The notes under the pieces were generated by a model. It was not told the origin of the DNA and did no database searches. It saw only the letters and a list, made by a program, of their open reading frames with translations. Below, piece after piece: positions 2,289-37,351 of a stretch of 64,000 nucleotides of DNA (position 1 is its first letter; each line of letters begins with the position of its first letter). Made by a program: the position numbers and the translations under genes. This DNA comes from Endomicrobiales bacterium. GTDB lineage: Bacteria; Elusimicrobiota; Endomicrobiia; Endomicrobiales; CAWCFT01. The DNA is taken from the NCBI GenBank assembly GCA_963794945.1, contig CAWCFT010000009.1, positions 64,001-128,000 on the forward strand, in the 5' to 3' direction.

Positions 2289-4494
<2,206 letters not shown>

Positions 4495-7509: not shown

Positions 7510-7610
7510 GAAAATCCCCTGAACCGTTACTGTCCTCAAATAATAAGTTCATTACACCTCGACAACATTTTAGGAGTGTATTTTGGATCAGGCTTATCAC
7601 TGACCTAGGC

Positions 7611-8438: not shown

Positions 8439-8473
8439 TTTACCTCTTTAATTATAGTCTAAACATTACCGCA

Positions 8474-8653
8474 CTAAAACAGCACGTAAATGAAAGGAAC
8501 CACACTACTGCTTTGCGCGAATATTATCAAAAGGCCCAGACCCAACAGAACTACGAACATAGGCACAAGCCACCAGAGTTTCCGTTCCCAGAAAAATTGC
8601 CAGAATTCACCCAGTATCGAGAACCTAGACATAAATTGCTTTAATGTAACCAT
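8474..8653 (-). CDS. Small membrane protein, DUF5989/SxtK-like
   Basis: EFWQFFWERKLWWLVP...AQSSSVVPFIYVLF signature; SD AAGGAG. Confidence 0.8.
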   Translation of the reverse strand: MVTLKQFMSRFSILGEFWQFFWERKLWWLVPMFVVLLGLGLLIIFAQSSSVVPFIYVLF

Positions 8654-8667
8654 CAAATTCTCCTTAT

Positions 8668-19670: not shown

Positions 19671-19747
19671 TGGTGCCCGGTAGAGGACTCGAACCTCTGA
19701 CCCCTTCCATGTCAAGGAAGTACTCTAACCAACTGAGCTAACCGGGC
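19671..19747 (-). tRNA. tRNA-Val (GAC)
   Basis: GCCCGGTTAGCTCAGTTGGTTAGAGTA CTTCC TT GAC AT GGAAG...GGTTCGAGTCC...ACCA. Confidence 0.96.
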
Positions 19748-19898
19748 ATTTAAGTCGCAATACTGTTATATTTCTAGTTTTTAGACCGAAATGTTACTTC
19801 TGAAAAAACACAAGACTAGAACGTTTTTTGATTATACAAAAAATATGTCTTAAATTCAAATTTTAGTTTCTAAGATGAGAGAACATTTTCATTTTGTA

Positions 19899-20753
19899 TC
19901 ATCGCGCCAGCCCCCTGCGCCTGCAATTACTTTCGATACAATTTAGGGGAAGCTCTAAAAGCTTTAAGTCATATTTGAAAATATTGCCCAACAGCGGGCC
20001 TTGCAATTGGCCACAAGGCCTCACCGAACCATCGACCCCAATAACTGCAAAATCCATGCCGGCATTACAGCAAGCACCTGATGATTTTTGATTTGTTTCG
20101 AGATTTATCGAACCAGATGAATCTCTTTCTTCACAAAGCATATTCATGTCATCTTGATCCTTACCCCATCTTTCCGTAATATCCATTAATTTTAGTTCTT
20201 CAATTGAATATGCGTGCGGATATTCTTTGCCATTATATTTGCCGCAGAATTGTGTCAAAGCCATATCGATATTTAAACCTTTAAAATACCTCTTGTAGTT
20301 AAGCATTTCTCTCAGTTGAAGTGGATGCGCCAGATAGCATACATTACAGATAAACCCTGCTTTTCGCAGTTTTATGACATTGCCGGCAAATTTAAAGTGA
20401 TCAGTTTTAAGAGGATGAAAAGTGGAATTAATTTCCACCTTTGAAGCGTCATTCTTTAAGATAAACTCTTCCAAAGGGACAGATAGGTTAGTTGTAACAT
20501 GAATAACATGCATTTTACTTAATTTGTATATAATATCAGCAAATCCCGGATAGAGAAAGGGCTCGCCTCCAGTAATGTATATCTTAATCGGTCCGTGCTC
20601 ATCATAAATATTTTCCCACGCGGAGCACACTTCATCCACGCTTCTGTCCGTACCATGCTGCTTTTTGATGTTATCCCATCCTGTTTGCGTAAAAAAGCAA
20701 TATTCACACTTGTAATTGCACTCATATCCCATATCCCAGGTAAATATCTTCAT
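19899..20753 (-). CDS. Radical SAM protein, paralog of 7611-8438
   Basis: CNYKCEYC, ITGGEP, CYLAHP, CNAG..AVIGVDGSVRPC. Confidence 0.85.
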   Translation of the reverse strand: MKIFTWDMGYECNYKCEYCFFTQTGWDNIKKQHGTDRSVDEVCSAWENIYDEHGPIKIYITGGEPFLYPGFADIIYKLSKMHVIHVTTNLSVPLEEFILKNDASKVEINSTFHPLKTDHFKFAGNVIKLRKAGFICNVCYLAHPLQLREMLNYKRYFKGLNIDMALTQFCGKYNGKEYPHAYSIEELKLMDITERWGKDQDDMNMLCEERDSSGSINLETNQKSSGACCNAGMDFAVIGVDGSVRPCGQLQGPLLGNIFKYDLKLLELPLNCIESNCRRRGLAR

Positions 20754-20848
20754 AAATATCTCTCTTTATCTGATTCAATAATGTTGCAATAACCATTATT
20801 AGAATTGCCGCCGCTCACACGGAAACCGGTGCCAACATGAAGCTAGCG

Positions 20849-21946
20849 TCATTTTGAAAGTTCCACAAAACACATCTCATTATCAGCCGCAATATCTATC
20901 AACTTAAAACCGCTGGCGGCGGCCATTCCCCCGATTTCAGTTATTCCAAGCTTATATTGTATCACATGTTTACTTACAGTCACAGAATCACTGCCAGGAC
21001 CATTATAGGATTTGCCAAGCACGGCCGACCATATCTTTCTCTTTAATACGTTAACTGCCTTCTCTTTGAGGTCGATCCACGAAATCAATATCCTCCCGTT
21101 CTGCGAAAGGCACTTTTTAAGCTTCTTTAATGTTTCAAGCTGCTTTGCGGGATCCAGAATATTAAGCATTCTGGCAAATATGATGTAGTCATATTGTTCA
21201 TCCGAATTAATGTTGTTTAAATTAATAGTTTTCACTTGCTTTCCCTGCCTTATTAATTTTGCGGCTTCTTCGGAATAGCCTCCGGACGACTGGATGTCAG
21301 CTATATTCTTTTCTAGTCCAACGTTTTGTATTTTACTTTCTGTAATCTTCAGGCTTTGCTGCCATTTTTCTAAAGATACGCCCATATTTGACCGCAATAA
21401 TATATAATTTTTATAATAGCTTAAATCGGTTTCAGGTAAAATTAACGATAGTATTGCTTTAATATTAAGGCGGAACCGCTTCAAAACAAACGAAATATAA
21501 GATAAATTTAATATATTAATCGTGATAGAACAATATAGCAACAAAATACTTATGCTTTTCCCGATCGGCGAATCGAGGTTAATTTCATATCCATTCTTTT
21601 TTATCCTCACAACTCGGCCCAGGATATCATCATAAATAACAAGCCTATCATCTTTAGCCACGTTGTTATCGCCCTTTGTGCAGAAACAAGGCCCGTTTTT
21701 GCCTTTAACCTTTTTTATAACTCTATGCGCGGTATTGATGTCCAACGACCTGTCAATATTTTCATAAACAACTATATCTCCAACACGAATTATATCGGGA
21801 GATACCTTTTTAACAAAAAGTGAATCGCCGGATATCAGAAGGGGCCACATACTTCTCCCTTTTGACTTAAATATTACCTCATTTCCTTTTACAAGCGACT
21901 CTTTACCCAGTTCGTTCAAAGTCTTCCGAAATTTTGCTGAATCCAT
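20849..21946 (-). CDS. S26 (signal peptidase I-like) peptidase fused to a methyltransferase-like domain
   Basis: GRSMWPLL..GD, AHRVI, TKGDNN; C-terminal YDYIIF..ML, LKKCLSQNGRILI. Confidence 0.75.
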   Translation of the reverse strand: MDSAKFRKTLNELGKESLVKGNEVIFKSKGRSMWPLLISGDSLFVKKVSPDIIRVGDIVVYENIDRSLDINTAHRVIKKVKGKNGPCFCTKGDNNVAKDDRLVIYDDILGRVVRIKKNGYEINLDSPIGKSISILLLYCSITINILNLSYISFVLKRFRLNIKAILSLILPETDLSYYKNYILLRSNMGVSLEKWQQSLKITESKIQNVGLEKNIADIQSSGGYSEEAAKLIRQGKQVKTINLNNINSDEQYDYIIFARMLNILDPAKQLETLKKLKKCLSQNGRILISWIDLKEKAVNVLKRKIWSAVLGKSYNGPGSDSVTVSKHVIQYKLGITEIGGMAAASGFKLIDIAADNEMCFVELSK

Positions 21947-22004
21947 TATAACGCCTCTATGCCCATGCTTATAGCTTCTATGATACTCTAAAGGACTGAA
22001 TTTC

Positions 22005-22925
22005 CTATATTAATAATACACTATACTCATTTGTAATTTTCTTAATAATCATTTTTTCAATTGTTTTACTGAACTTCATAGGGCAATATCCGCTGTAGCA
22101 GGACCTGGATATTGTGATAATGGCAGGGTTGATAGCTTTATTTTTCAGCGTGTCGAATATTCTATTAATCTCTCCGTTTATAGCTTCGGTATCCTGAAAA
22201 TATTCTTTCACTCTGGACTTTTTATGGCTAACAACAACAATATACCTTCCATTGTCTTTAGAGAATTCTAACTTAATATTATCGTACAACAAATATTTAT
22301 TTTTCGATAATAATTCCCTTTTTAAATATTGCCCGCGCGTTATTTCAATAGTGTGAAACAGCTCATTGCCGACAGAATCCCTGCAGGCAAAATAGTCCAG
22401 ATCAATATCAAGCAATACTTTTTTATTTTGCGGAATATGATCCATATCACATATATGTGAATCGAAATGTTTTATGTCGGGGAAAGCTTTGGTGAACATT
22501 TTGTTTTTTATAGGCGGTTCACTGCTTTTCTCGCACTTAATTATTTTCCCTTCCCCAAAAACAGAATAGACGATCATTTTGTGGTCTTCGGGTTTAATTT
22601 TTCTCCATTTTGGAAATACAAAATAAGCGTTTTTTACTATTCCGCCAAGAATGGCCGGTAGGATAAAACTTCCTATATCGATTTGCATATCACCGCGGAT
22701 AAAATCATTATAATAACCCGCGTAATCGGCGTATTTATTCTTTGGTATGTAAATCGATTTTGACAGCGTATTCGGCGTACCCATATCGCTATGCGCATCC
22801 AAGTGCAATATATCCAACGGCTCATTAATATTATTTTTATTTTTTTCTTTATGCCAGCAATAAAATGATTCATTGTGTTCGTCAACAATATAGACTGGAA
22901 TTCTATTATTTTTTTTGGTTATCAT
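22005..22925 (-). CDS. UPF0489 family (arginase/deacetylase-like) protein
   Basis: VYIVDEHNE, LHLDAHSDM, IGSFILPA, LLDIDLDYF, ITISRS..SGYCP. Confidence 0.75.
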   Translation of the reverse strand: MITKKNNRIPVYIVDEHNESFYCWHKEKNKNNINEPLDILHLDAHSDMGTPNTLSKSIYIPKNKYADYAGYYNDFIRGDMQIDIGSFILPAILGGIVKNAYFVFPKWRKIKPEDHKMIVYSVFGEGKIIKCEKSSEPPIKNKMFTKAFPDIKHFDSHICDMDHIPQNKKVLLDIDLDYFACRDSVGNELFHTIEITRGQYLKRELLSKNKYLLYDNIKLEFSKDNGRYIVVVSHKKSRVKEYFQDTEAINGEINRIFDTLKNKAINPAIITISRSCYSGYCPMKFSKTIEKMIIKKITNEYSVLLI

Positions 22926-23186
22926 AATTTAATTCCTTATACATACCGCCTATTAATTTCGAGGTTGAATCCCAATAAGTCAAACTAAATGCTAAAATTT
23001 GTGAAGAGTGAGAGAGTAGAATAAATATCTATATTACTCATTAGTAAACCCGCACACAATATATTTTTGTTATTAGATCAGGAAGGGAACTTTCGAGCAT
23101 TTTTTCATCTCTATTTATGCCAAATGGTGACCCTTTTATCAGAGCCCTCTGAAATCTATTATGTTATCAGATAGTATTTAGACGCT

Positions 23187-24299
23187 TTACACTTTTAAGT
23201 CGGTATTTAAAACCCTCGTTTCAGGGAAGAGACCTTCATCGCGGGCAATTTTACAGAAGACAAAAGGCGCTAAAAACGATTTTTGCTCCCAATAAGCTTC
23301 CGCCCTGCATTTTCCAAGGCAGAAATTCTTCATCATGCACTTCCCGCAAATTCCCTCAAGCTTTAAAGGCACGTCTTTTCTGATAATATTAAGAATCTTG
23401 TTATTTTCCCACACCTGCTTAAGTTTTGTGTCCTTAATATTGCCCATATTGAGTTCTTTAACGACACTACCTATTCCGCAAATTGATATTGTCCCATCAC
23501 CCGTAATACCGATTATAGACTTTATTCCGCATACGCACTTTTCAGTTTTGAGCTCTTCTATTGTTTTAAACGCCGGAGGAATATCAAAACACAGCTTGAG
23601 TTTTTTCTTAAGCCTTGGTCTGGACATATAGCTTTTCATTTTTTTATTTGTTTTGAGTATTTCGCCAATAGTAAGCAATTCGCCTTTACTCTTCATAATA
23701 TCCGCGCGGGAAACATTCATTATCGGGTTTATCTTCAGGCTGTTCACCCGCAAGGCCGCGCAAAGATCTATCATTTGTTTCATTTTACTTTTGTTTTCGT
23801 TCCAAAGGCTGCATATTACTTGTAAACTTAGCCCGGGGTTATATTTTCTCAACTGCCTTATTCCGTTTACAGCATTTTTGAATGACCCTTTTACATTCCT
23901 GAGTTTTTCGTGTGTTTGTTCATCAGGCCCGTCCAATGATACCGCTACTTGCATCACTTTATAATCTCTTACAGCCTTAGCCTCTTTCTCGCCGATCAGG
24001 GTGCCGTTTGTTTCAATATGCATGTTCAATTGATTCTTTTTGATCCATTTAAACAGCTCTATAATATCTTTTCTTAAAAAAGGTTCTCCGCCGGTGATCT
24101 TCACTGTTCTAAGCCCCAGCTTTTTGGCTTGTTTTAGCGCGTTTATTATATAACGCAGCTCAATGTCTTTCTTGTTGCCGCCATTGTCATCAGGCATACC
24201 AGTAAAATCGGGGTTTATCCAGCAGTGCCTGCAGTTAAGGTTACAGTATTTTGAAAAATATAAATACACTGATTTTAAAAGATATTTTTTTGTTTTCAT
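23187..24299 (-). CDS. Radical SAM/SPASM maturase, SynChlorMet ScmF-like
   Basis: CNLNCRHCWINP, KITGGEP, FDIPPAF, CGI..IIGITGDGTISICGIG, CGKCMMKNFCLGKC, FPETR. Confidence 0.8.
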   Translation of the reverse strand: MKTKKYLLKSVYLYFSKYCNLNCRHCWINPDFTGMPDDNGGNKKDIELRYIINALKQAKKLGLRTVKITGGEPFLRKDIIELFKWIKKNQLNMHIETNGTLIGEKEAKAVRDYKVMQVAVSLDGPDEQTHEKLRNVKGSFKNAVNGIRQLRKYNPGLSLQVICSLWNENKSKMKQMIDLCAALRVNSLKINPIMNVSRADIMKSKGELLTIGEILKTNKKMKSYMSRPRLKKKLKLCFDIPPAFKTIEELKTEKCVCGIKSIIGITGDGTISICGIGSVVKELNMGNIKDTKLKQVWENNKILNIIRKDVPLKLEGICGKCMMKNFCLGKCRAEAYWEQKSFLAPFVFCKIARDEGLFPETRVLNTDLKV

Positions 24300-24302
24300 C
24301 GC

Positions 24303-25337
24303 TTAGTTTTCCCTTTTCCAGCAGTAAAGTTCAGTATTTTTAATCCCTCCGGGATAATGGTACGGGTAACACCTGTGCCCCCAGAAACAGATATACTGAT
24401 GCTCGCATTCAACGCATTCCGGCATTTTTGTAATATCAACATGCAGATCCTTCCTGAAACTCCGCAGCACTTTTGAATTTTTCCAAATCTCCTTAAAGCT
24501 GTTTTTGTAAAGGCTCCCGGCTTTTACTTCCCAAATAACTTCACACGGAGTCACTGATCCGTCAGGCCGAATAGCGCACCTGGAAGTTGCCGCACCGCAG
24601 GGTGGGACTGTTATTTCCTTCATTTTAGGTTTAAACTTGCCAAGCCCTTTCAATTTATCATTCTGCTGCAGGTACGAGCCCGTTATAAAACCCGGGTATA
24701 GTTTCGAAAGCTTGACAATTTCTTCGATCGCTTTCCGCTCTTCATCAGGTGAAACATACACTTCCTTAAGGAAACACGCTGCGTTCCCGCCGTAAAATAC
24801 GTGGTTAAACCTGACACTGCTTGCTCCGATCTCTTTTCCAAGCTTTACAACTTTTTCTATATCTCCGATATTAAGCTTGGTCACGGTAAACGAAAGAAGC
24901 GCCTGCCCGCCGTATTTGATAATATTTTTTATTCCTGCTACGGCGCGGTCAAACGTATTTTTGCCTCTTTGCCTTTCATGCGTACCTTTTGCGCCGTCTA
25001 TGGACACAACGTAAGACCTAATATTAAAATCTTTTATTAGCATTTTTGCCATTTTATCCGTCATAAGAGTGGCGTTAGTGTTCATCGAGATCTTAATTTT
25101 ATACTTTCGGAACCTTTCAAGAAGAGCCGGCAGGTCCTTCTTTACAAGCGGTTCCCCGCCAAAAATTGAGACATTGAATACTTTTGCCCGGCCCACTTCG
25201 TCGATAACGCTAAGCATCTTTTCAGTGGACATATCTCTTTCCCCCCAGCTTTGCTTGACTCCGCAATGCCTGCATCGTTGGTTGCATTTGCCTGTTACAG
25301 TGAAACATAATGACGTAGGTGCGGAATATATCTTCAT
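24303..25337 (-). CDS. Radical SAM/SPASM maturase, SynChlorMet ScmE-like
   Basis: APTSLCFTVTGKCNQRCRHC, FGGEP, CGAATSRCAIRPDGSVTPC, CVECEHQYIC..HRC. Confidence 0.8.
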   Translation of the reverse strand: MKIYSAPTSLCFTVTGKCNQRCRHCGVKQSWGERDMSTEKMLSVIDEVGRAKVFNVSIFGGEPLVKKDLPALLERFRKYKIKISMNTNATLMTDKMAKMLIKDFNIRSYVVSIDGAKGTHERQRGKNTFDRAVAGIKNIIKYGGQALLSFTVTKLNIGDIEKVVKLGKEIGASSVRFNHVFYGGNAACFLKEVYVSPDEERKAIEEIVKLSKLYPGFITGSYLQQNDKLKGLGKFKPKMKEITVPPCGAATSRCAIRPDGSVTPCEVIWEVKAGSLYKNSFKEIWKNSKVLRSFRKDLHVDITKMPECVECEHQYICFWGHRCYPYHYPGGIKNTELYCWKREN

Positions 25338-25533
25338 CGCTTATCTCCTCTCAAACACTAACTTCCTGCTTAAAGACAAACTTTTTGAGTTGTGGCACAG
25401 GCTCTAAATTCGAAGGGTTCCATGTCGCTGGAGTGATTGAACAAGCTTAGCCTTTGCTTTATCCGCTTCAAAGTGTATTATTTCTGTCTCCGGCCATAAA
25501 CAGTTCCAGCAGTCGTTGACTAAACCATTGATA

Positions 25534-25797
25534 TTAATCCGCCCGCAACAGTATCTTTGATTTAACCAGGTCTTTAATTATGTTATTAATATCATCTTTA
25601 ATGTCATCTATTTTAGCCACGTAGGCCTTTGACAGCTCACCGTAAATATTTTCAATGTCCAGCCCTTTGTTTACCATTTGCCATACCTCACTGCCTGTCT
25701 TGTTAAGGTAACAATTTTCATTTGTATCAATGTTTACTATCACAACCTCGCCGTCAATATCCCGCCAAAGAACATCCTTGTTAATTTTATATTTCAT
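25534..25797 (-). CDS. PqqD family RiPP recognition element
   Basis: WRDIDGEVVIV..LNKTGSEVWQM...DINNIIKDLVKSKIL. Confidence 0.85.
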   Translation of the reverse strand: MKYKINKDVLWRDIDGEVVIVNIDTNENCYLNKTGSEVWQMVNKGLDIENIYGELSKAYVAKIDDIKDDINNIIKDLVKSKILLRAD

Positions 25798-26071
25798 TTC
25801 CCGCCTCCAGCAAGCCGTCCTTTTTCATTTTTTTAATGAATAATAATATATCCGGCCTTATCTTTTTATTGTTTTTGCCGTACTTATCTGTTGCTTTTGC
25901 GATAATATCTTCGATGCTGTATTTTCCGTTGCAAAACCCGCATATATATGCGCCGGTTTCATTGAGCGTTTCCATACTCCCTGTTTCCGAATTAAATACA
26001 ATAGCCTCTTTGCCTTCGCGCCTGAAAACTATTTTTGGGTTTATAACGAAATAAATATTTTTCCTACTCAT
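25787..26071 (-). CDS. PqqD family RiPP recognition element (ScmD-like)
   Basis: NPKIVFRRE..AIVFN..LNETGAYI..CNGKYSIEDI..FIKKMKKDGLL; SD AGGAGG. Confidence 0.85.
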   Translation of the reverse strand: MSRKNIYFVINPKIVFRREGKEAIVFNSETGSMETLNETGAYICGFCNGKYSIEDIIAKATDKYGKNNKKIRPDILLFIKKMKKDGLLEAGNEI

Positions 26072-26329
26072 CAAAACCTCCTGTGCCGCTTTATGTAAAT
26101 AATTTCTTGAATCGGCTTTTTAATAAACCTCGATTTTTTATTCCTGTTCCACCTAACCTGTCATTCAGCAATGAATTGCCGCACGTTAAGTGTTATAAAC
26201 AGCAGCCTTTTTCATGGAATGTTGAAAATCCGTTTATGGTTTAGCGGCTGGACACATTTTTAAACTGGGCTCACAGTTATTGTTAAGAATTGGTATTTTA
26301 TCTTATGGATTCTTTTAAGCCAAAAAATA

Positions 26330-26539
26330 TTAGTCCAGCGGAGCTGTGCCTGGCCCACATGTGCTAAAAGGATAGCTACCTCGGACACATTCCCCTTCCG
26401 AAACACCACTACTACCACCAACGCACAGCGGAAGCGCACTGTATCCGGATGCTTCAAACTTGTAGTCTGTTTTGTTCCCGAATAGTATCTTTTCAGGTTT
26501 TATCCATTTCATCTTGCTTTGCTTCTTCCTGCTTTTCAT
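26330..26539 (-). CDS. RiPP precursor F (3 CxxG)
   Basis: KWIKPEKILFGN leader; core CVGG, CVRG, CGPG. Confidence 0.8.
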   Translation of the reverse strand: MKSRKKQSKMKWIKPEKILFGNKTDYKFEASGYSALPLCVGGSSGVSEGECVRGSYPFSTCGPGTAPLD

Positions 26540-26618
26540 CTTTCTTTCTCCCAAAACAACTTACACCATTGGTTAGCTGTTGTGTTATGACAAGATTGCT
26601 GGAAGTTTTCAACATCTG

Positions 26619-26837
26619 TCACCATTCTATTATAGGCCTGTTACCAGTATTGCAAGTGTTTACTCCGACAGCGGCACCACCGCCATTACATATATAGCCT
26701 GCAAAACCTTCACCACCGGTGACGCACTGAAAATCGTATCCGGATGCTTCAAACTCGTAGTCTATTTTGTTCCCAAATATTATCTTTTCGGGTTTTATCC
26801 ATTTCATCTTTTTATGTTTCCTGATGTTTTTATTCAT
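26619..26837 (-). CDS. RiPP precursor E (3 CxxG)
   Basis: KWIKPEKIIFGN; CVTG, CNGG, CNTG. Confidence 0.8.
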   Translation of the reverse strand: MNKNIRKHKKMKWIKPEKIIFGNKIDYEFEASGYDFQCVTGGEGFAGYICNGGGAAVGVNTCNTGNRPIIEW

Positions 26838-26890
26838 TTTTCCCAATCCTGGAATCTGGCCTGCAATGGCCAGGCATCTCGCCCGTACTG

Positions 26891-27178
26891 CTACTGCGCT
26901 ATCGGCGCAACAGTAACAATTTGACCGTCGCTACACGCATTCCTGCTAGGGCCAACAGCGCTGATACCTAGGCTACAATCATACAAAGCAGTGTTACCGT
27001 ACGTACAATCTGACGCATTGCCGCTACCACTAATACAACCGAGACCAGCAACACAAGATGCCGCATCGCCAATACCAGTGGAACAATTGGCAGCTACAAT
27101 CATTGCTTCATTCCCAAAGGAGATTTTTTCAGGTTTTATCCATTTTATTTGTTTTTGTTTCCTAACGTTTTTATTCAT
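26891..27178 (-). CDS. RiPP precursor D (6 CxxG)
   Basis: KWIKPEKISFGN; CSTG, CVAG, CISG, CTYG, CSLG, CSDG. Confidence 0.8.
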   Translation of the reverse strand: MNKNVRKQKQIKWIKPEKISFGNEAMIVAANCSTGIGDAASCVAGLGCISGSGNASDCTYGNTALYDCSLGISAVGPSRNACSDGQIVTVAPIAQ

Positions 27179-27376
27179 TCTTTATCCAATTACTAGATTA
27201 TTGAAAACCCCAACAAGGCTCAACTTGATCATCCGGACTTCATCTACATTCACTCGCCCTCTTTCTATATTTGTTTCAATTAAATCAAGACAGGGCCCAA
27301 TTTACCTGTCATGCAATCGTAATTATTCTAGGGTTAGAATAAACATCACCACTTAAGCTGAAGAAAGATTATAAAG

Positions 27377-27613
27377 CTACCTCAACATGGGGTTGCCGCC
27401 TCCAGTACAATCGCTAGAAGGGTACGAACCGCCTGAACAGTGCAAGCCTTGGTTACCTGGGGTACACGAAAAAGCGCCTCCACCACTACTGCATTGGTTA
27501 GCATCACTGCCGCCGGAAGTACAATTAGCAGATGAAATAATTGAGTCATTACCGAATACTATCTTTTCAGGTTTTATCCATTTCGTTTTACTTTGCATCT
27601 TTCTGTTTTCCAT
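27377..27613 (-). CDS. RiPP precursor C (5 CxxG)
   Basis: KWIKPEKIVFGN; CTSG, CSSG, CTPG, CSGG, CTGG; SD AAGGAG. Confidence 0.82.
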   Translation of the reverse strand: MENRKMQSKTKWIKPEKIVFGNDSIISSANCTSGGSDANQCSSGGGAFSCTPGNQGLHCSGGSYPSSDCTGGGNPMLR

Positions 27614-27695
27614 TATTTCTCCTTCAATAGCTTACGCCATTAGTAAACTGTTGTGCCCTGACAAAATTGCCGGAAGTTTTCTATATCTGTTAAAT

Positions 27696-27899
27696 TTATT
27701 CTGCAGCACCGACGCCCGGAGTGCAAGGACTTCCAGTATCGTCGGAACCACCGTTACAAAGAAGAACAGCACGATTGCCAGGGCCACACTGATGGCCGAT
27801 ATCGTATCCAGCTGCTGTAAACTCGTGGCCCAAATTGTTCCCGAATACTATCTTTTCAGGTTTTATCCATTTTATCTTACTTTGATCTTTTTTTGTCAT
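27696..27899 (-). CDS. RiPP precursor B (3 CxxG)
   Basis: ATG at 27899 after GGAG; KWIKPEKIVFGN; CGPG, CNGG, CTPG. Confidence 0.8.
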   Translation of the reverse strand: MTKKDQSKIKWIKPEKIVFGNNLGHEFTAAGYDIGHQCGPGNRAVLLCNGGSDDTGSPCTPGVGAAE

Positions 27900-28019
27900 T
27901 TTTCTCCAAGTTGCTTGTGCTTGTTCTGAACACAACCTTTTGCTGTATCTCCTTGGCAAAGCCACATCAGTCATCTGTATGGATACAGCGTACGCAAAAA
28001 GTTCCGCGGATATACGCCG

Positions 28020-28271
28020 CTATAACATTTTTATAGGGCGAATACCTGGGTTGCAAGGGCTGCCATCTCCACCGCCTGTCCAGCAAGCGGTATAATCAGC
28101 GCCATTGCCAGAGCTACACATATTACCAGACGGTTGAGTCGAGCCATCTTGACAACCTGCAGGTATAGTGTATCCAGCTGCATTAAAATTGTCACCCATA
28201 TCGTTCCCAAATGTGATTTTTTCAGGCTTTATCCATTTCATGTTATTTTGATTCTTTCTGTTCTTTGTCAT
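28020..28271 (-). CDS. RiPP precursor A (4 CxxG)
   Basis: KWIKPEKITFGN; CQDG, CSSG, CWTG, CNPG. Confidence 0.8.
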   Translation of the reverse strand: MTKNRKNQNNMKWIKPEKITFGNDMGDNFNAAGYTIPAGCQDGSTQPSGNMCSSGNGADYTACWTGGGDGSPCNPGIRPIKML

Positions 28272-28296
28272 TTTCTTTTCCAATATTATTTATAAT

Positions 28297-29567
28297 CACT
28301 TCTGTCCGGTTAAAAAGCGAACGCCATTGTTAGTTGGCGGTCTGTGTTTTTGATTTTAGGCAGCAATCGATCATTCAAATTAAGTAAGTCAATGAGATTG
28401 AGGCGTTCAAGAAGCGTTTCCTGAATGACTTTGTGCAGGTAGAACAGTGAATATTTATATTTTGACTGATATTTGATGTAAGACAGAAGCAAGTAGTAGC
28501 ACATGGCAATCCAGATCTGCGTAAGCACAGCGTTCTTTGAAGTGCCAAAGAATGTTTTGATTTTAAGGTTCTGCTTGATCCACTTGAAAAAGACTTCAAC
28601 TTGCCAGCGGGCTTTATAGATACCAGCAATAGTAGAAGCGGCAAGCTTGAAGTTGTTGGTAATAAAAACAAGCAGTTTATCGGTTTGCTTGTCATAGTAA
28701 CGGATCAAGCGCAGTTCTTTGGGATAATCCTGCTTCTGATAAAAGCCGTTCAAGGCGATAATTTCATCTGAAATTACGCTGTTTTTTGATGATTCAGGAT
28801 GCTGTCCGGAAACAGTGTAATTGATGTTGTCTTTGGCTCTGGTAACGAAGAAAGCGCCTACTGTGTCTATTGAATTAAACCAGGCAAAGTCTATATAGCC
28901 CTTGTCCATGCAGTAGATGCTGTCCGGCACAATGTCAAAAGAAGAACGGGCAACGGTTATTTCGTGCTTTTTGGCATCTGTGACAACCATGAACGTGGGT
29001 ATCTGCCCGGCATGGTCTAACTGGCAATGCAGTTTTATAGCCCCTTTGGTAGTGCGGAATTTTGCCCATGAAAACATTGACAGGCACAAGTCAATGACTG
29101 TGGCGTCAAAAATGAACAATGGGTTTTTAAACTTGAATTTGTGTGTAGGGGTTATATTCTTACAGCGTTCAAGCAAGGCATAAAACAACCCTTCATATAT
29201 GCGGTAGTCGCGTTTCTGGTTGGCATCGGCAAGAGTAGAACGGCGCACAATGGCAAGGCCGACATGGTAGAGCTTTCCGGCTTGCGCCAGAAAAGCATTA
29301 ACAATATCACGCAAGCTGTCCTTGCCGCTGATTTGGGCATAAAGCATGACTGTTAGTTGTTTCCAGCAATTGAAGGTTTTGACGTATCTGTCCCCGAAAT
29401 GACGAGAAACGAGGTTTTCAAAACGATGTCTCGGAATAAACGTTTGCAATTGGTTCATGATAGTGTTATAATGCATCTTATCAATCCTCCGTCAGTAGAT
29501 TTGTTCCTTTGCAGAAACATTCTACCTGATCGGGGGATTTTATTCAAATTTTAACCGGACAGGTGTG
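28297..29567 (-). mobile_element. IS4-family insertion sequence, 1271 bp
   Basis: 19-bp terminal IRs CACTTCTGTCCGGTTAAAA / CACACCTGTCCGGTTAAAA (17/19 identical); 9-bp target duplication ATTTATAAT at 28288-28296 and 29568-29576. Confidence 0.92.
28310..29476 (-). CDS. IS4 family DDE transposase (DUF4372 N-terminus)
   Basis: SLRDI, RSTLADAN, FDAT, MDKGY, YKARWQVEVFFKWIKQNL (Y-R-E-K motif). Confidence 0.95.
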   Translation of the reverse strand: MHYNTIMNQLQTFIPRHRFENLVSRHFGDRYVKTFNCWKQLTVMLYAQISGKDSLRDIVNAFLAQAGKLYHVGLAIVRRSTLADANQKRDYRIYEGLFYALLERCKNITPTHKFKFKNPLFIFDATVIDLCLSMFSWAKFRTTKGAIKLHCQLDHAGQIPTFMVVTDAKKHEITVARSSFDIVPDSIYCMDKGYIDFAWFNSIDTVGAFFVTRAKDNINYTVSGQHPESSKNSVISDEIIALNGFYQKQDYPKELRLIRYYDKQTDKLLVFITNNFKLAASTIAGIYKARWQVEVFFKWIKQNLKIKTFFGTSKNAVLTQIWIAMCYYLLLSYIKYQSKYKYSLFYLHKVIQETLLERLNLIDLLNLNDRLLPKIKNTDRQLTMAFAF

Positions 29568-29645
29568 ATTTATAATAATTAATAACTGCCTTTGTTCTGA
29601 AGCCCGATCACGGATTTCCGGCAATACAAACACATTATGTGAGGA

Positions 29646-30749
29646 TCAAGTATTATCAATTATTCCATATAACTTTTTCATCGCCGTTTCGAACGTTTTT
29701 TCGCCGAAACGCCTTTTTGCCATATTAAAGGCGTTAAATGACAGCTTGTTCCAAAGCATTTCGTTATTATATACTTTTACTACCTTTTTCGCAAACTCTT
29801 CCGGCTTATCAGCGACTAAAACCTCTCTGCCGTGTTTCGCGCCTATGCCTTCGACACCGATCGAACTCGTCACAACCGGGGTCCTTGAGATCATTGAATC
29901 AACTATCTTCTTCTTTACACCCGCCCCATAACGCATGGGGCATACAAAAACACGGTATTTGCCGAGCTCATCAAAAATATCATCTACGCGCCCATGGGTC
30001 AGTAAACCTCCGCCCATTCTATGAAAATGGTCCGCCCCATTGCCTGCCACATGGAATTTTATGCTGGGGATCTTTTTTTTGATCAAAGGAAATATTTTTC
30101 TCATAAAATATTTTATAGTATCGTCATTGGCCCCTTCATTTCCGTATTGCCCGAAAAACACAAGGCCGGACCTTTCCGCGAACTTTCTCGGAACTGTTCC
30201 CTTTTCAGGAACTTCCGTGGGCGTAGGTATGATCATTATTCTTTTGCCTGGAAGTTCTTTCCTGAATATATCCCTTTCGGGCTTTGATATTGCGATTAGC
30301 GTGTCAGCCAGCTTGAGCCCTTCAAGTTCATTAATTTTACTTTTTCTAAAAAAAGAATCACGGCTTTTTACGCCGTTTATTTGCATTTCTCTTCTTTGCC
30401 TGATGTATGTGATCTCATGAGTGTCAACAATAATGCGGTTAAATAACGGCAGGCAGCTGCGGAAACCGGCTATGCAGTAATATGACCTGAATATCGCTGT
30501 TTTTATTCTGTTTTTTAAAATAAACCTGTTGATGTTTGCAACATGATTCTTATCCAACGGAAAAACAATTTTTACTCCCATATCTATAAGCGCTTTGCCG
30601 CTTAAACCACTATTCCATCGGACGGTGAGCGGCAGCAGAAACACTCTGTACCTTTTTGCCAGGCTTTTACAAAGGCGGTAAACCCTCCAGTCTCCTGCAT
30701 TAGTTTCAAAATGTGGGATATGAGTGACGACAACAAGGATGCTTTTCAA
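29646..30749 (-). CDS. Glycosyltransferase, GT-B fold (family 4-like)
   Basis: IIVDTHE, VFVCPMRYGAGVKKKIVDSM..TPVVTSSIGVEG. Confidence 0.85.
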   Translation of the reverse strand: MKSILVVVTHIPHFETNAGDWRVYRLCKSLAKRYRVFLLPLTVRWNSGLSGKALIDMGVKIVFPLDKNHVANINRFILKNRIKTAIFRSYYCIAGFRSCLPLFNRIIVDTHEITYIRQRREMQINGVKSRDSFFRKSKINELEGLKLADTLIAISKPERDIFRKELPGKRIMIIPTPTEVPEKGTVPRKFAERSGLVFFGQYGNEGANDDTIKYFMRKIFPLIKKKIPSIKFHVAGNGADHFHRMGGGLLTHGRVDDIFDELGKYRVFVCPMRYGAGVKKKIVDSMISRTPVVTSSIGVEGIGAKHGREVLVADKPEEFAKKVVKVYNNEMLWNKLSFNAFNMAKRRFGEKTFETAMKKLYGIIDNT

Positions 30750-30782
30750 GTAACGTTCCTTTTGCTTTAGCCTTACTCTTCT

Positions 30783-31670
30783 TTAACTTGCATAATTCCG
30801 CGCCGTCCGCCAGTGGTGGGCCTCTACAACAGAGGCACGGCCTTCTGTTTGCTGTTTTTCATAAATGCTGTAAAATCTTCTCCCTGCTTTTCCCCACTTC
30901 TTTAAGAATTTCTTCTTGGCCGCGCGGCACACCGCGTCTATTCTTCCGTATTTGTGCTTGAATATTCCGGACTTCGTGGCTTTGCTGATAAAATGAAATA
31001 TAAAAACATTCATGGCATTAACCAGTTTGTACCCTGCCTTTTTTGCCCTGAACGAATATTCAAGGTCTTCACCGCTGCATGGATAGAACCTTTCGTCAAA
31101 CAGGCCTATTTTGTCGACAACGCTTCGTTTTATCAGCATGCACATTCCGTGAATATAAAGCGCCTCATCATACTGCCCTTTTCTACTCAGCGATAACATC
31201 ACCGCGGCTTTTTGGATTTCTTTTATATTTCTAAACCCGGCGATAGCTGGAAAAAGGCCATAATCGTTTATGACATTATTGCTCGCGCAGCCAACAATGC
31301 CTGTCTTTTTATCGCTTTCCGCGCAGCTTACCAGGCCCTCAAGCCAGTTAATAGTCACTATTACGTCATTGTTCAGATAACAAACATATTTACCTTCGGA
31401 TATATATATCCCGCGGTTTAACGCCCCGGATACGCCAAGGTTCCGTTTGCTTATTATCGGCTTAAACGCCCGTATCGAGCTCCTGGCTCCAACGGCCAGC
31501 CTGTTTTTAAGGGTTTTGAAATACTTTCCGGTGCCATCGGATGAACCGTTATCAATTACTATCAGTTCAAAAGGGTATGATGTGTATTTAAGTATGCTGT
31601 TAATGCACATCTTTGTGAATTTAAGCTCATTGAAACAAGGTATTATTATCGAGACAATATTTTCTGTCAT
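30783..31670 (-). CDS. Glycosyltransferase family 2
   Basis: VSIIIPCFN, IDNGSSDGT, YLNNDVIV, IGLFDERF..GEDLE. Confidence 0.9.
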   Translation of the reverse strand: MTENIVSIIIPCFNELKFTKMCINSILKYTSYPFELIVIDNGSSDGTGKYFKTLKNRLAVGARSSIRAFKPIISKRNLGVSGALNRGIYISEGKYVCYLNNDVIVTINWLEGLVSCAESDKKTGIVGCASNNVINDYGLFPAIAGFRNIKEIQKAAVMLSLSRKGQYDEALYIHGMCMLIKRSVVDKIGLFDERFYPCSGEDLEYSFRAKKAGYKLVNAMNVFIFHFISKATKSGIFKHKYGRIDAVCRAAKKKFLKKWGKAGRRFYSIYEKQQTEGRASVVEAHHWRTARNYAS

Positions 31671-31780
31671 ATAGAATTATTGATCTTTTTGCGGCCAGAA
31701 CCAGCTAATATTAGCAACAATAATTATAAAATAATGCGCAAGAGTTTTCCGGAAGAACAGAAAACATCAAACAAAGACGC

Positions 31781-32563
31781 TTAAAGTATTTTAAAAACAA
31801 CCTCGCTTTGCTTTTTTTCCTTAATTCTGACACTTTGCTCATATTGCCCTGTTATTTCATCTATATTTCCAAAACCCAGCTGTTCACCGTGATTTATGTA
31901 AAGCGCCCTTTTACAGTATTTTTTTATACTGCCGATCCCGTGCGAAATGAACAATATCGTGCTGCCACTATTAAGAAGCCTTTCGATCGCGCCGATGCAC
32001 TTAGTCTGGAATGAGGCATCGCCAACGGCCAACACTTCATCGATCATTATTATGCCGGAAACTGTTTGTATAACGGTAGCAAAAGCTAGGCGGGCTCTCA
32101 TGCCGGATGAATATTCTCCAAGCCTCGTTTCCATAAACCCGTCAAGCTCGGCGAATTCCGTTATTTCCGGCAGTTTTTGGTCTATTTGTTTTCTCGTCAT
32201 GCCGTGCAGAGCTCCGTAAAGATACACGTTCTCCACAGCGGTGAACCGCTGGTTAAAACCGAGCCCGAGCTCAAAAATACATGAAACCTCTTCCCTGACC
32301 ACGTAGCTCCCGACGGTCGGGGCCATGATACCTGAAAGGATCCTTAACAGGGTTGTTTTGCCCGCGCCATTCGGCCCGATAATAGGCAGCATCTCTCCCC
32401 TGTTCACCGTAATGTTTATATCACGCAGCGCCCAAAAATCTTTTGTAGGGTATTCACCGCTCAACTTATACTTTAAAGTTGTAAACAGCGTATGCCTTTC
32501 TTTTGTGCCTATCCTGAATTTTTTAGATAGGCCCTTGGTCTCTATCAATGGTTCGTTCAGCAT
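31781..32563 (-). CDS. wzt: Polysaccharide ABC exporter ATP-binding subunit (Wzt/TagH-like, no C-terminal sugar-binding domain)
   Basis: FWALRDI, GPNGAGKTT, YSSGMRARLAFA, IDEVLAVGDASFQTKC. Confidence 0.88.
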   Translation of the reverse strand: MLNEPLIETKGLSKKFRIGTKERHTLFTTLKYKLSGEYPTKDFWALRDINITVNRGEMLPIIGPNGAGKTTLLRILSGIMAPTVGSYVVREEVSCIFELGLGFNQRFTAVENVYLYGALHGMTRKQIDQKLPEITEFAELDGFMETRLGEYSSGMRARLAFATVIQTVSGIIMIDEVLAVGDASFQTKCIGAIERLLNSGSTILFISHGIGSIKKYCKRALYINHGEQLGFGNIDEITGQYEQSVRIKEKKQSEVVFKIL

Positions 32564-33327
32564 ATCTTTTCCACAAAGAATCCTTCCATTTTTTTAAACA
32601 ACCTGTATCCCACGATCAAAATTACTGTCGAGAGCACGAATACATAAATAAGCCCCGGCAGGTCGGGGAATTTATTGTCGATTAATATTTGCCTGGTAGC
32701 TTTTATAATATGCGTCATAGGGTTAAGGAGGATTATCCTCTGCTTGCCTACGCTAAGCATATCCATTGAATAGAATATCGGAGTTATGAATATGCCTATG
32801 CTCATCAGTATGCCCCATATCCTTGATATATCAAGAAAATATACGCCTATTGTGGCAAGAACAAAAGAGAGCGCGACCACAAGATAAATATTCAAAGCGA
32901 GTATCGGGAGCAGTAGAATAACTTTTATGCCAACGTGCCCTTTAATAATAAGAAAGACAACTATCAATATAAATAATTCCAGCAAATGGATGTAGAGAGC
33001 GGACAATACCGAGCACATGACCAGCACCGACTTCGGGAAGTTTATGCTTTTAATATACATGCTGTACCTGATAAGCACAAAAATGGCCGAGCTCGTAGCG
33101 GACGCAAAAAAGTTCCATTGAACGAAACCTATGATCAGGTAAAGAGGGAAATCCGGTATACGCGAGCCCATCCATTTTACGAACAATCCGTAAAGGACAA
33201 GATAGTAGATCAGCGGATTGAGCAACGTCCACAAGAATCCCGCGACCGTACCCTGATCCCTCATTTTGAAATCAGCCGTGGCAAGAGAGAAAACCATCGT
33301 CCAGTAATTTTTCTTGAGCATTTCCAT
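32557..33327 (-). CDS. wzm: Polysaccharide ABC exporter permease (Wzm/TagG-like)
   Basis: GFLWTLLNPL, FITPIFYS, LNPMTHII; about six TM helices. Confidence 0.88.
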   Translation of the reverse strand: MEMLKKNYWTMVFSLATADFKMRDQGTVAGFLWTLLNPLIYYLVLYGLFVKWMGSRIPDFPLYLIIGFVQWNFFASATSSAIFVLIRYSMYIKSINFPKSVLVMCSVLSALYIHLLELFILIVVFLIIKGHVGIKVILLLPILALNIYLVVALSFVLATIGVYFLDISRIWGILMSIGIFITPIFYSMDMLSVGKQRIILLNPMTHIIKATRQILIDNKFPDLPGLIYVFVLSTVILIVGYRLFKKMEGFFVEKIC

Positions 33328-33499
33328 TATTACGCCGGATCTCCTTCAAAACATGGGCACAGGCAAACAGTCGAAAGGGCCTGAATAAATATTGAACGCG
33401 GGGCTAATAAGCAACCCAGCGTTCCCTGTATTCGCGTTCATTAAGCTCACTGTTCATTGACACCGGATTTTGAATATTTAATACAAACCACCCCAACAC

Positions 33500-34461
33500 T
33501 CAGTTTATGCCTTTTTTAAATGACCTGAGAGCATACCCTATACATCCTCCGTGGCATGTTTTTCTGATAAAATGCTTGCATTTACGGCACTTCGGTTCTG
33601 CTCCAAGCTCTTGTATATTTTTAAACCTGTCATTAAAATATTTATCCGCGTCTCTCACAGTATTAAAATCATTCATCGAAGCGTTGAACAACCCCGATGT
33701 TGCAAAGCATCTCCACATAGTTAAATCTATATTTATGTCATTTGCACCCTTGCAGAATAACAATGGAAAATTATCATCATAGTACAACTGTCCAATCTGC
33801 TTTTTTGTAAAACTGCATAGCCTGAAGCCGCAATCGAAATCTATTCTAATATTATGCTTGTCACATTCTTTAGAAAAACTTACAACATATTTTCCGATTT
33901 GCCCGTGGTCCAGTGCTGACAAATGTTTGTTGCCGCCATCAGCTAACGGAGCAGCTAACCCCAGCCTGACCACCTTTTTTAAATTATATTTTCTTATTAA
34001 ACTGATAAGCCAACTACCATTAAAGTTTCTGTCATGTATGGTATAACCTGCTCTTGCTATTTTATTGAGCCCTTTCATTGTTTTATTAAGTATTTTCCAA
34101 GACTTAATAGAATAGCTTTCGGGGTTATTTACGTTTAAAATGACATTTACTTTTTTCGGGTCGACCCCCTTCAAATATTGCAACACCTTGTCTTTCATAA
34201 TGCCGTTTGAAAATATTCTAACACTTATCCCTGACTTCAAGATCATATCAATAGCCGCATTAAATTGCGGATGAAGAGTCAGCTCGCCCCAAGTATTCCC
34301 AAAGTATTTTCATTGGATTTTTTCGCGAAATTAATTACTTTATTTATATTTTCAAGAGTAACATAATGATCCTCTCCTGCGCTTTTTGTGTCTTGTATTT
34401 TGCCTTTTGCAAAACAATACTGGCATTTTAGATTACAGATATTTGTGAACAGGACATTCAT
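33500..34461 (-). CDS. Radical SAM protein with SPASM-like C-terminus (one frameshift near 34285)
   Basis: CNLKCQYCF in 34279-34461; G(G)ELTLHP junction; FDCGF, CRKC..F..KTCHGGC in 33500-34246. Confidence 0.8.
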
Positions 34462-34683
34462 TGTTTCCTCTTTTTAAGGGCCGTCTAGCCATTGCAATAG
34501 AACAAAAAGGTACTGTAAAACCAAATTAAAGTGTCGTAGGTATCAATGAAATATTTTACAGATAGGCTGAAGAAAGGAATTATATATGCTGTCTTATTAG
34601 TGGTTCCCATGTCAATGAAGTGCTATAACCAACCGAGTTAAATGGATATATATTAGATTATAACTTGCAAATGAAGGCTAAAA

Positions 34684-34759
34684 TGGAGGTGCGGGTCGGA
34701 GTTGAACCGACGAATGACGGTTTTGCAGACCGCCCCCTTAACCACTTGGGTACCGCACC
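34684..34759 (-). tRNA. tRNA-Cys (GCA)
   Basis: GGTGCGGTACCCAAGTGGTTAAGGGG GCGGT CT GCA AA ACCGT...GGTTCAACTCC...TCCA. Confidence 0.96.
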
Positions 34760-36270: not shown

Positions 36271-37351
36271 TTATATAAAAGACAACAGTTTTTTATTATT
36301 TGTGAATGTTTTGACCTGCTCCAGCAGGAAATTCATTGCCTCTTCCGGCTTCTTATGGGATAATATTTTTCTCAAGTCGATTATTGATTTGATGTCTTCC
36401 TTATCATAGAGCAGTTCTTCTTTTCTTGTGCCGCTTTCCATTATATTGATGGCCGGAAATATTCGTTGCTCTGCCAGCGCCCTGTCCAAAACTATTTCAC
36501 AGTTTCCCGTGCCCTTGAATTCCTGAAAAATAAGGTCGTCCATGCGCGAACCCGTGTCGACCAGCGTTCGTGGCGAGTATAGTGACCGAGCCGCCATTCT
36601 CTATTTTGCGGGCTAGGCCGAGGAAACGGCGCGGTATCTGCAGCGCTTCGCTATCCACCCCCCCGGACATGGTCCGGCCGCTTGACGAGCCCCTCTGATT
36701 GAAAGCCCGCGCCATGCGGGTCAGGCTGTCAACAAGTATTACCACATCCTTTTTGCATTCCAATTCTATCCTTATCTGCGCTAATACAAGTTCTGTCAGC
36801 GCGACGTGTTCCGCTACCGTGCGGTCGCTGCTGCTTGCGATAACCTCCGCATCGACACCGCGTTTGAAAAATGTTACTTCTTCGGGCCGTTCATCTATAA
36901 GTAATACTATTATCCGTGCGTCGCCATCAGCCTCGCGAATGGTCTTTGCGATCTTCATCAAAAGCGTTGTCTTGCCCGCTTTTGAAGGTGAAACTATTAG
37001 CCCTCTGGTACCTTTGCCGATGGGGGTAATCAGGTCAAGTATCCGCATACTGATATCCGTTGACTTTGAAAGATCGAACCTTTCATTTGGGTCTACAGCT
37101 GTCAGCTCATCGAACGGTGTCCTATTGGAGAACTCACTTGGAGAAAGGCCGCAGATGGTATCTATCGAAGTGATCTGTTTATTTTCTTCTTTCCCTTCGA
37201 CAAAAGCGCCGGATATAAGATGATACTGTTTGACTGATGCCTGAGGCACAACAACATCATCAGCGCACGGGACAAATGATCTTTTAGGGTCGCGCAGCGC
37301 CCCCGCTCCATTGCGCGTGAATTGAAAAATACCTTTTGTTTGTATAGACAT
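36271..37351 (-). CDS. rho: Transcription termination factor Rho, compact form (one frameshift near 36570)
   Basis: PIGKGTRGLIVSPSKAGKT, LLIDERPEEVT, DSLTRMARAFN, FQEFKGTGN, SGTRKEELL. Confidence 0.9.

Follow-up and report, generated by a model that had tools for sequence, protein, structure and literature searches.

What would a bacterium make with six small cysteine-rich peptides, two radical S-adenosylmethionine (rSAM) enzymes and an arginase homolog encoded side by side, and does such a cluster belong to a known family? The question is raised by a locus of an Endomicrobiales bacterium (assembly GCA_963794945.1, contig CAWCFT010000009.1, positions 64,001 to 128,000 of the forward strand); these 64,000 nucleotides (nt), the whole stretch analysed, are referred to as the window, and coordinates are those of the window unless a contig or locus is named. 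The cluster lies on the minus strand at 28271-19899 and comprises 13 co-oriented genes, all with open frames: six precursor genes, two RiPP recognition elements (RREs; RiPP, ribosomally synthesised and post-translationally modified peptide), two rSAM/SPASM genes, a UPF0489 gene, an S26 peptidase fusion and a short rSAM gene. A preliminary description, made from the sequence alone, had given this parts list, which stands in full, and had placed the cluster among rSAM-dependent RiPP pathways related to the SynChlorMet (SCM) family.

We report an analysis that agrees with this placement: the cluster is very probably an SCM-related RiPP pathway and, judged by its sequence, is a divergent relative of the family, not a strict member. 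The SCM-type family is already known as a catalogued, apparently uncharacterised system; what is new here is the pairing with an arginase, a separate branch of the partner rSAM enzyme, and a reduced gene set with six substrates. The genes of the cluster, with lengths in amino acids (aa) and profile scores in bits, are as follows.

28020..28271, minus strand: precursor A1, 83 aa, four CxxG repeats, one core Arg
27696..27899, minus strand: precursor A2, 67 aa, three CxxG repeats, one core Arg
27377..27613, minus strand: precursor A3, 78 aa, five CxxG repeats, Arg as the C-terminal residue; weak ScmA match (TIGR04252, 18.6 bits, cut-off 35)
26891..27178, minus strand: precursor A4, 95 aa, six CxxG repeats, one core Arg
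26619..26837, minus strand: precursor A5, 72 aa, three CxxG repeats, one core Arg
26330..26539, minus strand: precursor A6, 69 aa, three CxxG repeats, one core Arg; TIGR04252 14.4 bits
25787..26074, minus strand: RRE 1, PqqD family (PF05402 49.4 bits, cut-off 23.4; ScmD TIGR04248 28.4, cut-off 100)
25534..25797, minus strand: RRE 2, PqqD family (PF05402 39.9 bits, cut-off 23.4; ScmD TIGR04248 20.2, cut-off 100)
24303..25337, minus strand: ScmE-like rSAM/SPASM enzyme (TIGR04250 158.9 bits, cut-off 400), assigned by conservation and tree to an 'HxC' branch
23187..24299, minus strand: ScmF-like rSAM/SPASM enzyme with a seven-Cys SPASM motif (TIGR04251 317.5 bits, cut-off 400)
22005..22925, minus strand: peptide arginase homolog, PF12640/UPF0489 (62.9 bits, cut-off 27), three metal motifs intact
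20849..21946, minus strand: S26 (SEC11-like) peptidase (TIGR02228 63.2 bits, cut-off 51.85) with a degenerate-looking class I methyltransferase-like domain
19899..20753, minus strand: short rSAM protein, generic PF04055 match in the N-terminal part only

Precursor peptides

The six precursors (67-95 aa) have in common the leader KWIKPEKIxFGN, which was found in no further precursor of the genome. Their cores are divergent (29-49% identical), and yet all 24 of their cysteines fall in CxxG repeats, where 20,000 shuffles of the cores averaged 4.3 and did not exceed 13. Codons vary at seven of the 11 invariant leader positions and every change is synonymous, as expected for translated genes. That there are six precursor genes, and that one enzyme set serves several divergent precursors, had both been proposed in the preliminary description and is upheld. 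Across the 24 repeats the Gly at +3 is the sole invariant non-Cys position; +6 is variable, and the repeats are spaced by 6 to 14 residues.

Related loci yielded 94 non-redundant CxxG precursors, with a Y-x-x-P leader in 90 and W-x-x-P in four, a repeat spacing of 10-11 in most cases and, at the +6 position, 66% Ala/Pro; these were picked by CxxG, and their Gly frequency is therefore circular. A single precursor per locus is usual (74 of 86 precursor-bearing loci). The other six-precursor locus, L130, lacks an arginase; its peptides are richer in Cys, of which about 60-80% fall in CxxG, and have 0-2 Arg in the core. The ScmA model gives no match for the four precursors other than A3 and A6, and none for two CxxG precursors of related loci. 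Besides A3 itself and A4, a phmmer search with A3 brought up two genuine relatives and three repeat proteins that appear to be spurious, and a metagenome peptide (P0173, 73 aa, on a 952-bp contig) has the leader KWIKPEKIIF and five CxxG repeats with no core Arg. No selenocysteine-type precursors were found in the related loci.

RREs and paired radical SAM/SPASM enzymes

The two genes that had been called PqqD/RRE both exceed the PF05402 cut-off, and the names ScmE-like and ScmF-like are retained for the paired rSAM/SPASM enzymes, whose best NCBIfam matches are indeed ScmE and ScmF, at scores below the cut-offs. A search with the ScmD, ScmE and ScmF models, which the preliminary description had put forward as a check, was run: its positive part is these two best matches, its negative part that no Scm model reached its cut-off. 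For the ScmF-like enzyme the next-best NCBIfam family lies far behind, at 141.8 bits. The two enzymes are 25% identical to each other and non-paralogous.

The ScmF-like enzyme is full length against its homologs, of which 476 were retrieved at E<=1e-60, the five closest being 54-64% identical. The seven SPASM cysteines are kept in 99-100% of 146 ScmF sequences, 79 of them with no extra Cys nearby, and of the residues conserved at 90% or more none is lost in the window's enzyme apart from L266T. Its structure model has a pLDDT of 91.

In the ScmE-like enzyme, C254, H321 and C323 take the places of a hydrophobic residue, Cys, and Ala or Gly, respectively, in the canonical branch. This signature occurs in 17 of 100 ScmE-like sequences, all within one 18-row branch (SH-aLRT 99) that is mostly Omnitrophota and is separate from a 64-row branch containing an above-cut-off ScmE member; the tree is a quick, unrooted one built with no outgroup. 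Barrel residues also distinguish the branches: F59, S149, R176 and E266 are found in 17 of 17 HxC sequences and N86 in 16, whereas L86, Q110 and R149 are found in 62-64 of the 64 canonical ones. The substrate motif is the same in both branches, and ScmC is kept in 13 of 16 other HxC-branch loci.

Relation to the SynChlorMet family

An alignment search with ScmF provided 160 related loci: the 80 top-ranking of at least 491 stretches in genome contigs, together with the top 80 of at least 526 in metagenomes. Omnitrophota, Thermodesulfobacteriota, Chloroflexota, Chlorobium and methanogens are among their sources. Fifty-eight loci, some of them near-duplicates, have at least 6 kb on either side and serve as the well-covered relatives; among these, 53 have an ScmE-like gene, 54 an RRE, 50 an ScmC-like kinase, 39 an S26 peptidase, 34 a PF14907 nucleotidyltransferase and 32 a peptide ABC exporter. 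The window shares with the family the clustering of two rSAM/SPASM genes with an RRE and a Cys-rich peptide; it falls below the ScmE, ScmF, ScmD and ScmA cut-offs and has no ScmC. Five relatives tested on TIGR04251 scored 350, 350 and 363, below the cut-off of 400, and 539 and 591, above it; as three of the five also fall short, that cut-off is a narrow one. Two tested related loci exceed both the ScmE and the ScmF cut-offs.

These counts bear on two earlier claims. The word 'expanded' is half right, as the cluster has six precursors and lacks the ScmC kinase, the nucleotidyltransferase and the exporter. The claim of an undescribed type of system does not survive, given the 160 related loci, the two members that pass the ScmE and ScmF cut-offs and the second locus with six precursors. 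The view that SCM is experimentally uncharacterised holds: no experimental work on SynChlorMet or on CxxG/rSAM precursors was found in the open literature, subscription journals and bioRxiv supplements lying outside the search. Scm names are absent from the supplements of PMC10288494 and PMC9062424, where enzymes may appear by accession only, and a term search of PMC10114670 gave no match.

The missing functions were sought elsewhere in the genome, which is 85.9% complete. TIGR04249 (ScmC) has no match in it; a custom ScmC-like profile picks out two distant kinase-like proteins, one on contig C14 (100 bits), where it belongs to another RiPP cassette, and one in the window at 5522-6526 (43 bits), compared with a median of 204 and a 5th percentile of 76 for family members, which themselves built the profile. 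It is possible that a kinase-like gene elsewhere is used in trans. A nucleotidyltransferase is present on contig C2, unlinked to the cluster.

Two other cassettes were noted. On contig C14, 51081-53640 (L176 7091-9637) is a separate RiPP-like cassette with a kinase-like gene, an RRE, an rSAM/SPASM gene and a 48-aa peptide having a YKRP leader and three Cys outside CxxG. The only other ScmF among 401 genomes of the phylum lies at L180 767-10644 (G384:C31), where, by eye, the SCM cassette continues into lasso-peptide-like genes.

The peptide arginase homolog

The preliminary description had named the UPF0489 family, correctly, since the PF12640 cut-off is passed; the protein is not one of unknown function, as the match to OspR and the motifs identify it as a peptide arginase homolog. 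Its metal motifs DEHNESF, DAHSD and LDIDLDYFAC are the three peptide-arginase family motifs as set out in PMC12703449, a subfamily profile matches OspR (8BRP) over its full length (E 1e-47), and the FlmR/OhkR model gives 161.7 bits, under its cut-off of 350. The protein is full length against its homologs.

The precursors show a matching feature: exactly one Arg is present in each of the six cores, and no other residue has such a pattern. Length-matched cores from loci without an arginase have no Arg in 30 of 61 cases, and resampling puts the probability that all six have at least one Arg at 0.009 if they are independent. This statistic is suggestive support only for a pairing of arginase and precursors.

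Searches for the same pairing elsewhere gave little. The arginase is absent from 161 related SCM loci, from 401 genomes of an Omnitrophota-centred sample and, by PF12640, from the 50 genomes searched of 80 that bear ScmF (incomplete genomes, positive control included). A Syntrophaceae-centred sample of 401 genomes held one weak match, and the 401 genomes of the phylum five besides the source genome; no SCM genes lay near the weak matches in the four of six loci inspected (2-4 kb each). Viral contigs gave 22-27% matches at most. The five closest ScmF relatives and 45 arginase relatives stand outside these co-occurrence counts, and a single-protein genome scan for the context of the closest relatives found nothing.

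The S26 fusion and the last radical SAM gene

The S26 half of what had been described as a peptidase-methyltransferase fusion holds up and the methyltransferase half is weakened. The Ser, His and Asp motifs GRSMWP, HRV and KGDNN align with SEC11A/C, and the domain, its SEC11-like motifs intact, is a normal family member. The other half gives 19.8 bits on PF08242, under the cut-off of 30, with Atlas matches of 0.88-0.90. Class I S-adenosylmethionine-dependent methyltransferases have as hallmarks a Gly-rich cofactor-binding motif I and an acidic residue after strand 2; by eye the C-terminal domain, with DIQSSGG as candidate motif and INLNN at the strand-2 end, appears not to match them and looks degenerate. 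There is no full-length homolog of the fusion within its length class, related S26 proteins cover residues 1-172 only, and a single-sequence fold has a pLDDT of 38. As the assembly has frameshifts elsewhere, the fusion may be artificial; there is no long homopolymer at the junction. In an Omnitrophota locus (L016 7394-9919), ScmF itself carries a class I methyltransferase at its C-terminus; the motif of that domain looks intact, and the domain is not related to the one in the window.

The last rSAM gene is present as had been stated, with a generic family match, and its membership of the pathway is what becomes doubtful: it has no blastp match in the 161 related loci, and the genome holds at least nine other frames paralogous to it, most of them in an rSAM array on contig C13. 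It is probably a passenger outside the pathway, and together with the methyltransferase-like domain it probably contributes nothing. The contig C13 array (L177 3429-19998, L178 340-1047) holds about 14 rSAM genes, in which short-rSAM paralogs alternate with B12-type rSAMs, and the Atlas neighbours of the short-rSAM family come from Elusimicrobiota and phages. A second rSAM-rich run in the window (5522-11352, minus strand) has the distant ScmC-like kinase-like protein, a GT2 gene, a short-rSAM paralog (38% identical), an rSAM/SPASM gene and a split B12-binding rSAM; neither RRE nor precursor was seen there.

The genomic island and its IS4 element

The surroundings of the cluster, which the preliminary description had missed along with an insertion sequence directly upstream of the first precursor, comprise the following features.

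19753..34606: lower-GC island of 14.9 kb, flanked by tRNA-Cys and tRNA-Val
19671-19747: tRNA-Val, one flank of the island
34684-34759: tRNA-Cys, the other flank
28297..29567, minus strand: IS4-family element with inverted repeats and a 9-bp target-site duplication; transposase at 28310-29476 (NF033592 287 bits, cut-off 115)

A 46-nt repeat of the 5' half of tRNA-Val, 78% identical, bounds the island. The two tRNA genes adjoin in eight of nine relatives' loci, the ninth stopping at a contig edge, and ScmF occurs in two of 401 genomes of the phylum, the source genome counted. These observations point to horizontal acquisition of the SCM-related cluster; no integrase was seen. The idea that the tRNA-Val is a chimera was dropped, its acceptor stem pairing being perfect. 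The island also contains, at 29646-33327 on the minus strand, GT4 and GT2 genes and the Wzm/Wzt genes of a glycan-type exporter and, at its far end (33500-34461, minus strand), an rSAM/SPASM-like gene with a frameshift in a short G run. The genes katG (2289-4477) and rho (36271-37351) are split as well, so the assembly looks indel-prone.

The IS4 element is inserted 25 nt upstream of the start codon of precursor A1. Six copies are present in the genome, five besides that of the window, and because they are 99-100% identical the insertion appears to be recent; a search with the patterns of its ends matched the window copy alone and none of the other five. One promoter-like site lies at 29601-29572 and a second, at 28313-28285, spans the right end of the element. 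Promoter matches number 53, compared with 42.7 (sd 7.5) in shuffles, and being no commoner than in these, neither site counts as evidence of function. The insertion may have silenced the operon or re-driven it.

Proposed pathway and alternatives

We propose that one enzyme set processes all six precursors of this horizontally acquired cluster. The RREs would recognise the W-I-K-P leader common to all six, a variant of the Y-x-x-P of the family, and present the precursors to the rSAM enzymes, a step suggested by the known function of RREs and by the fusion of an RRE to the ScmE-like enzyme in 18 open reading frames of relatives. One rSAM/SPASM enzyme, most likely the ScmF-like one, would then hold a core Cys on auxiliary cluster I and abstract hydrogen from the +3 Gly, giving a thioether from Cys sulfur to Gly alpha-carbon and three to six unnested four-residue rings per peptide. 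One such alpha-thioether per repeat is the simplest reading because Cys and the +3 Gly alone are invariant in the cores, and we consider it credible without calling it probable. The poly-macrocyclic nature of the products, put forward in the preliminary description, stays an inference. Its elements have precedents, in so far as the cited sources cover them: seven SPASM Cys with an open site on auxiliary cluster I is the arrangement in AlbA and CteB (PMC6231123), the substrate chalcogen contacts the auxiliary iron in PapB and Tte1186 (PMC10177961), Cys-to-Gly sactionines are made by StsB and BlaB (PMC10288494), and four-residue unnested sactionine rings occur in streptosactin (PMC9389541). The ScmE-like enzyme might add a second change to each repeat, perhaps at the Ala/Pro-rich +6 position, which is a guess; the arginase would act on the precursors and turn the single core Arg into ornithine, which we think likely from its motifs and homology; and the S26 domain would cut off the leader. 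Taken as a whole, with thioether rings, ornithine and leader cleavage by S26, the scheme falls just short of what we would call probable.

Several observations weigh against it. The cluster lacks the kinase, nucleotidyltransferase and exporter that most relatives have, and the IS4 element stands between the promoter-like site at 29601-29572 and the first precursor, so that the cluster may be silent. In the window's ScmF there is an additional Cys, C255, as 67 of 146 homologs have one nearby, and its auxiliary cluster I may in consequence be fully ligated. The folds nearest to the ScmF model, SkfB, SuiB, CteB, PqqE and anSME, mix thioether, C-C and oxidation enzymes, which the fold search does not separate. 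The catalytic-site residues, located by motif adjacency and not by superposition, are W-T-E-S-G-I in ScmF and G-F-N-S-E-V in the ScmE-like enzyme, and neither set is that of StsB (Y-T-I-S-K-L) or CteB (F-F-T-S-H-Q), the two comparison enzymes. For the arginase, the Arg pattern was spotted post hoc in six genes that are paralogs, with the Arg at differing positions and C-terminal in one core, and no second arginase-bearing SCM locus was found in the loci and genome samples searched.

Three other explanations deserve weighing. Within the same RiPP pathway the sulfur could undergo different chemistry, the Cys either bonding to some other residue, such as the Ala/Pro that lies four positions before it in the preceding repeat, or being oxidised to give a thioaldehyde or heterocycle, with the +3 Gly kept for a tight turn. 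The enrichment of Ala, Pro and Val at +6, which at a spacing of 10 is -4 of the next Cys, would fit such a link, as would the conservation of two different rSAMs together and active-site profiles unlike those of StsB and CteB, both thioether-forming; the eight SPASM Cys and one His of the HxC branch would moreover allow full ligation of the clusters, the state in anSME and SuiB, as far as PMC6231123 describes them. The invariance of the +3 Gly beside a variable +6 argues the other way, however, and the spacing of 6 to 14 in the window fits a link within a repeat better than one between repeats, so we regard this explanation as rather unlikely.

Cysteine might form no carbon cross-links at all, instead making disulfides or binding metal in a small repeat fold, with the rSAMs acting on the backbone (epimerisation or C-C bonds) and a surface or matrix product tied to polysaccharide export. 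Glycosyltransferase or polysaccharide-export genes do lie within about 10 kb in 27 of the 58 well-covered relatives (Wzc, Wza or Wzy in 17), and GT2, GT4 and Wzm/Wzt genes are in the island itself, but these counts come with no background rate and from non-independent loci. The Cys count is odd in four precursors of the six (3, 5, 3 and 3), and Cys-rich cores beside seven-Cys SPASM enzymes generally serve as thioether substrates; we judge this explanation improbable. Hardly less improbable is a decaying or mosaic island, in which an SCM core stripped of its partner genes has been silenced by IS4, with the arginase, the methyltransferase-like domain and the last rSAM travelling along as unrelated passengers. 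The position of the element, the missing ScmC, nucleotidyltransferase and exporter, the frameshifted rSAM at the far end, and an arginase gene of lower GC (0.33, versus 0.38 and 0.44 in the two rSAM genes) standing 260 nt from scmF would all agree with decay. On the other side, 13 of 13 frames are open, ScmF and the arginase are full length, conserved ScmF residues other than L266 are kept and leader codons vary only synonymously, while the IS4 insertion is recent and has a promoter-like site across its right end.

Whichever chemistry applies, members of the SCM family occur widely among anaerobic bacteria and methanogens, at least 491 ScmF-like stretches being counted among genome contigs. 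The window offers a convenient test case: six natural substrates with three to six repeats, and stand-alone RREs. Lacking kinase and nucleotidyltransferase, the locus asks directly whether two rSAMs suffice. Among ScmE-like enzymes, the C254/H321/C323 branch gives a specific lead on unusual auxiliary-cluster ligation, and a CxxG-repeat locus would add a new precursor type to the peptide arginases, which serve as peptide-engineering tools. As a working idea, and a doubtful one at present, the cluster might represent a minimal SCM branch in which two rSAMs, one with the Cys8+His SPASM set of a mostly Omnitrophota clade, modify every CxxG in an undescribed way with neither kinase nor nucleotidyltransferase, and a dedicated arginase adds ornithine; if true, both the RiPP class and the pairing of arginase and precursor would be new, and six natural substrates would be at hand to test them.

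Comparison with known systems

The closest known system is the SCM cassette (TIGR04248 ScmD, TIGR04249 ScmC, TIGR04250 ScmE, TIGR04251 ScmF, TIGR04252 ScmA). The window resembles it in the paired rSAM/SPASM enzymes whose best matches are ScmE and ScmF, the PqqD-type RREs, a Cys-rich precursor with a weak ScmA match and the S26 peptidase. It differs in scores below the cut-offs, the W-I-K-P leader, the lack of ScmC, nucleotidyltransferase and peptide ABC exporter, the added arginase, the six precursors, and a partner rSAM from a separate branch with other active-site and SPASM residues.

With the sactipeptide systems (StsB, BlaB, GggB/streptosactin and QmpB), in so far as the sources on them extend, the cluster shares a core in which Cys and Gly are co-conserved, an RRE-dependent SPASM enzyme and a precedent for four-residue rings; it is unlike them in that each window enzyme scores 84 bits on the StsB model and has different catalytic-site residues, and in having three to six periodic repeats and two non-paralogous rSAMs. 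The enteropeptin pathway, which joins a sactipeptide to an arginase and a methyltransferase, resembles the proposed scheme in combining a thioether, the conversion of Arg to ornithine and possible methylation, as given in PMC12703449. There, however, the arginase KgrD is of PF00491 and the methyltransferase is Fe-S dependent, whereas the window has an arginase of PF12640 and a class I fold that looks degenerate, and in no core of the window does the Arg adjoin a Cys. The peptide arginases of PF12640 (OspR, FlmR, OhkR, BipC and PbsE) are matched in full-length homology to OspR and in the three metal-binding motifs, as these are presented in PMC12703449 and PMC12707348; the precursor types listed in PMC12703449 are NHLP, N11P, SCIFF, SCCRRSCN, DD(I/V)LF and MGXRRSSE, a list with no CxxG-repeat type, to which the precursors described here belong.

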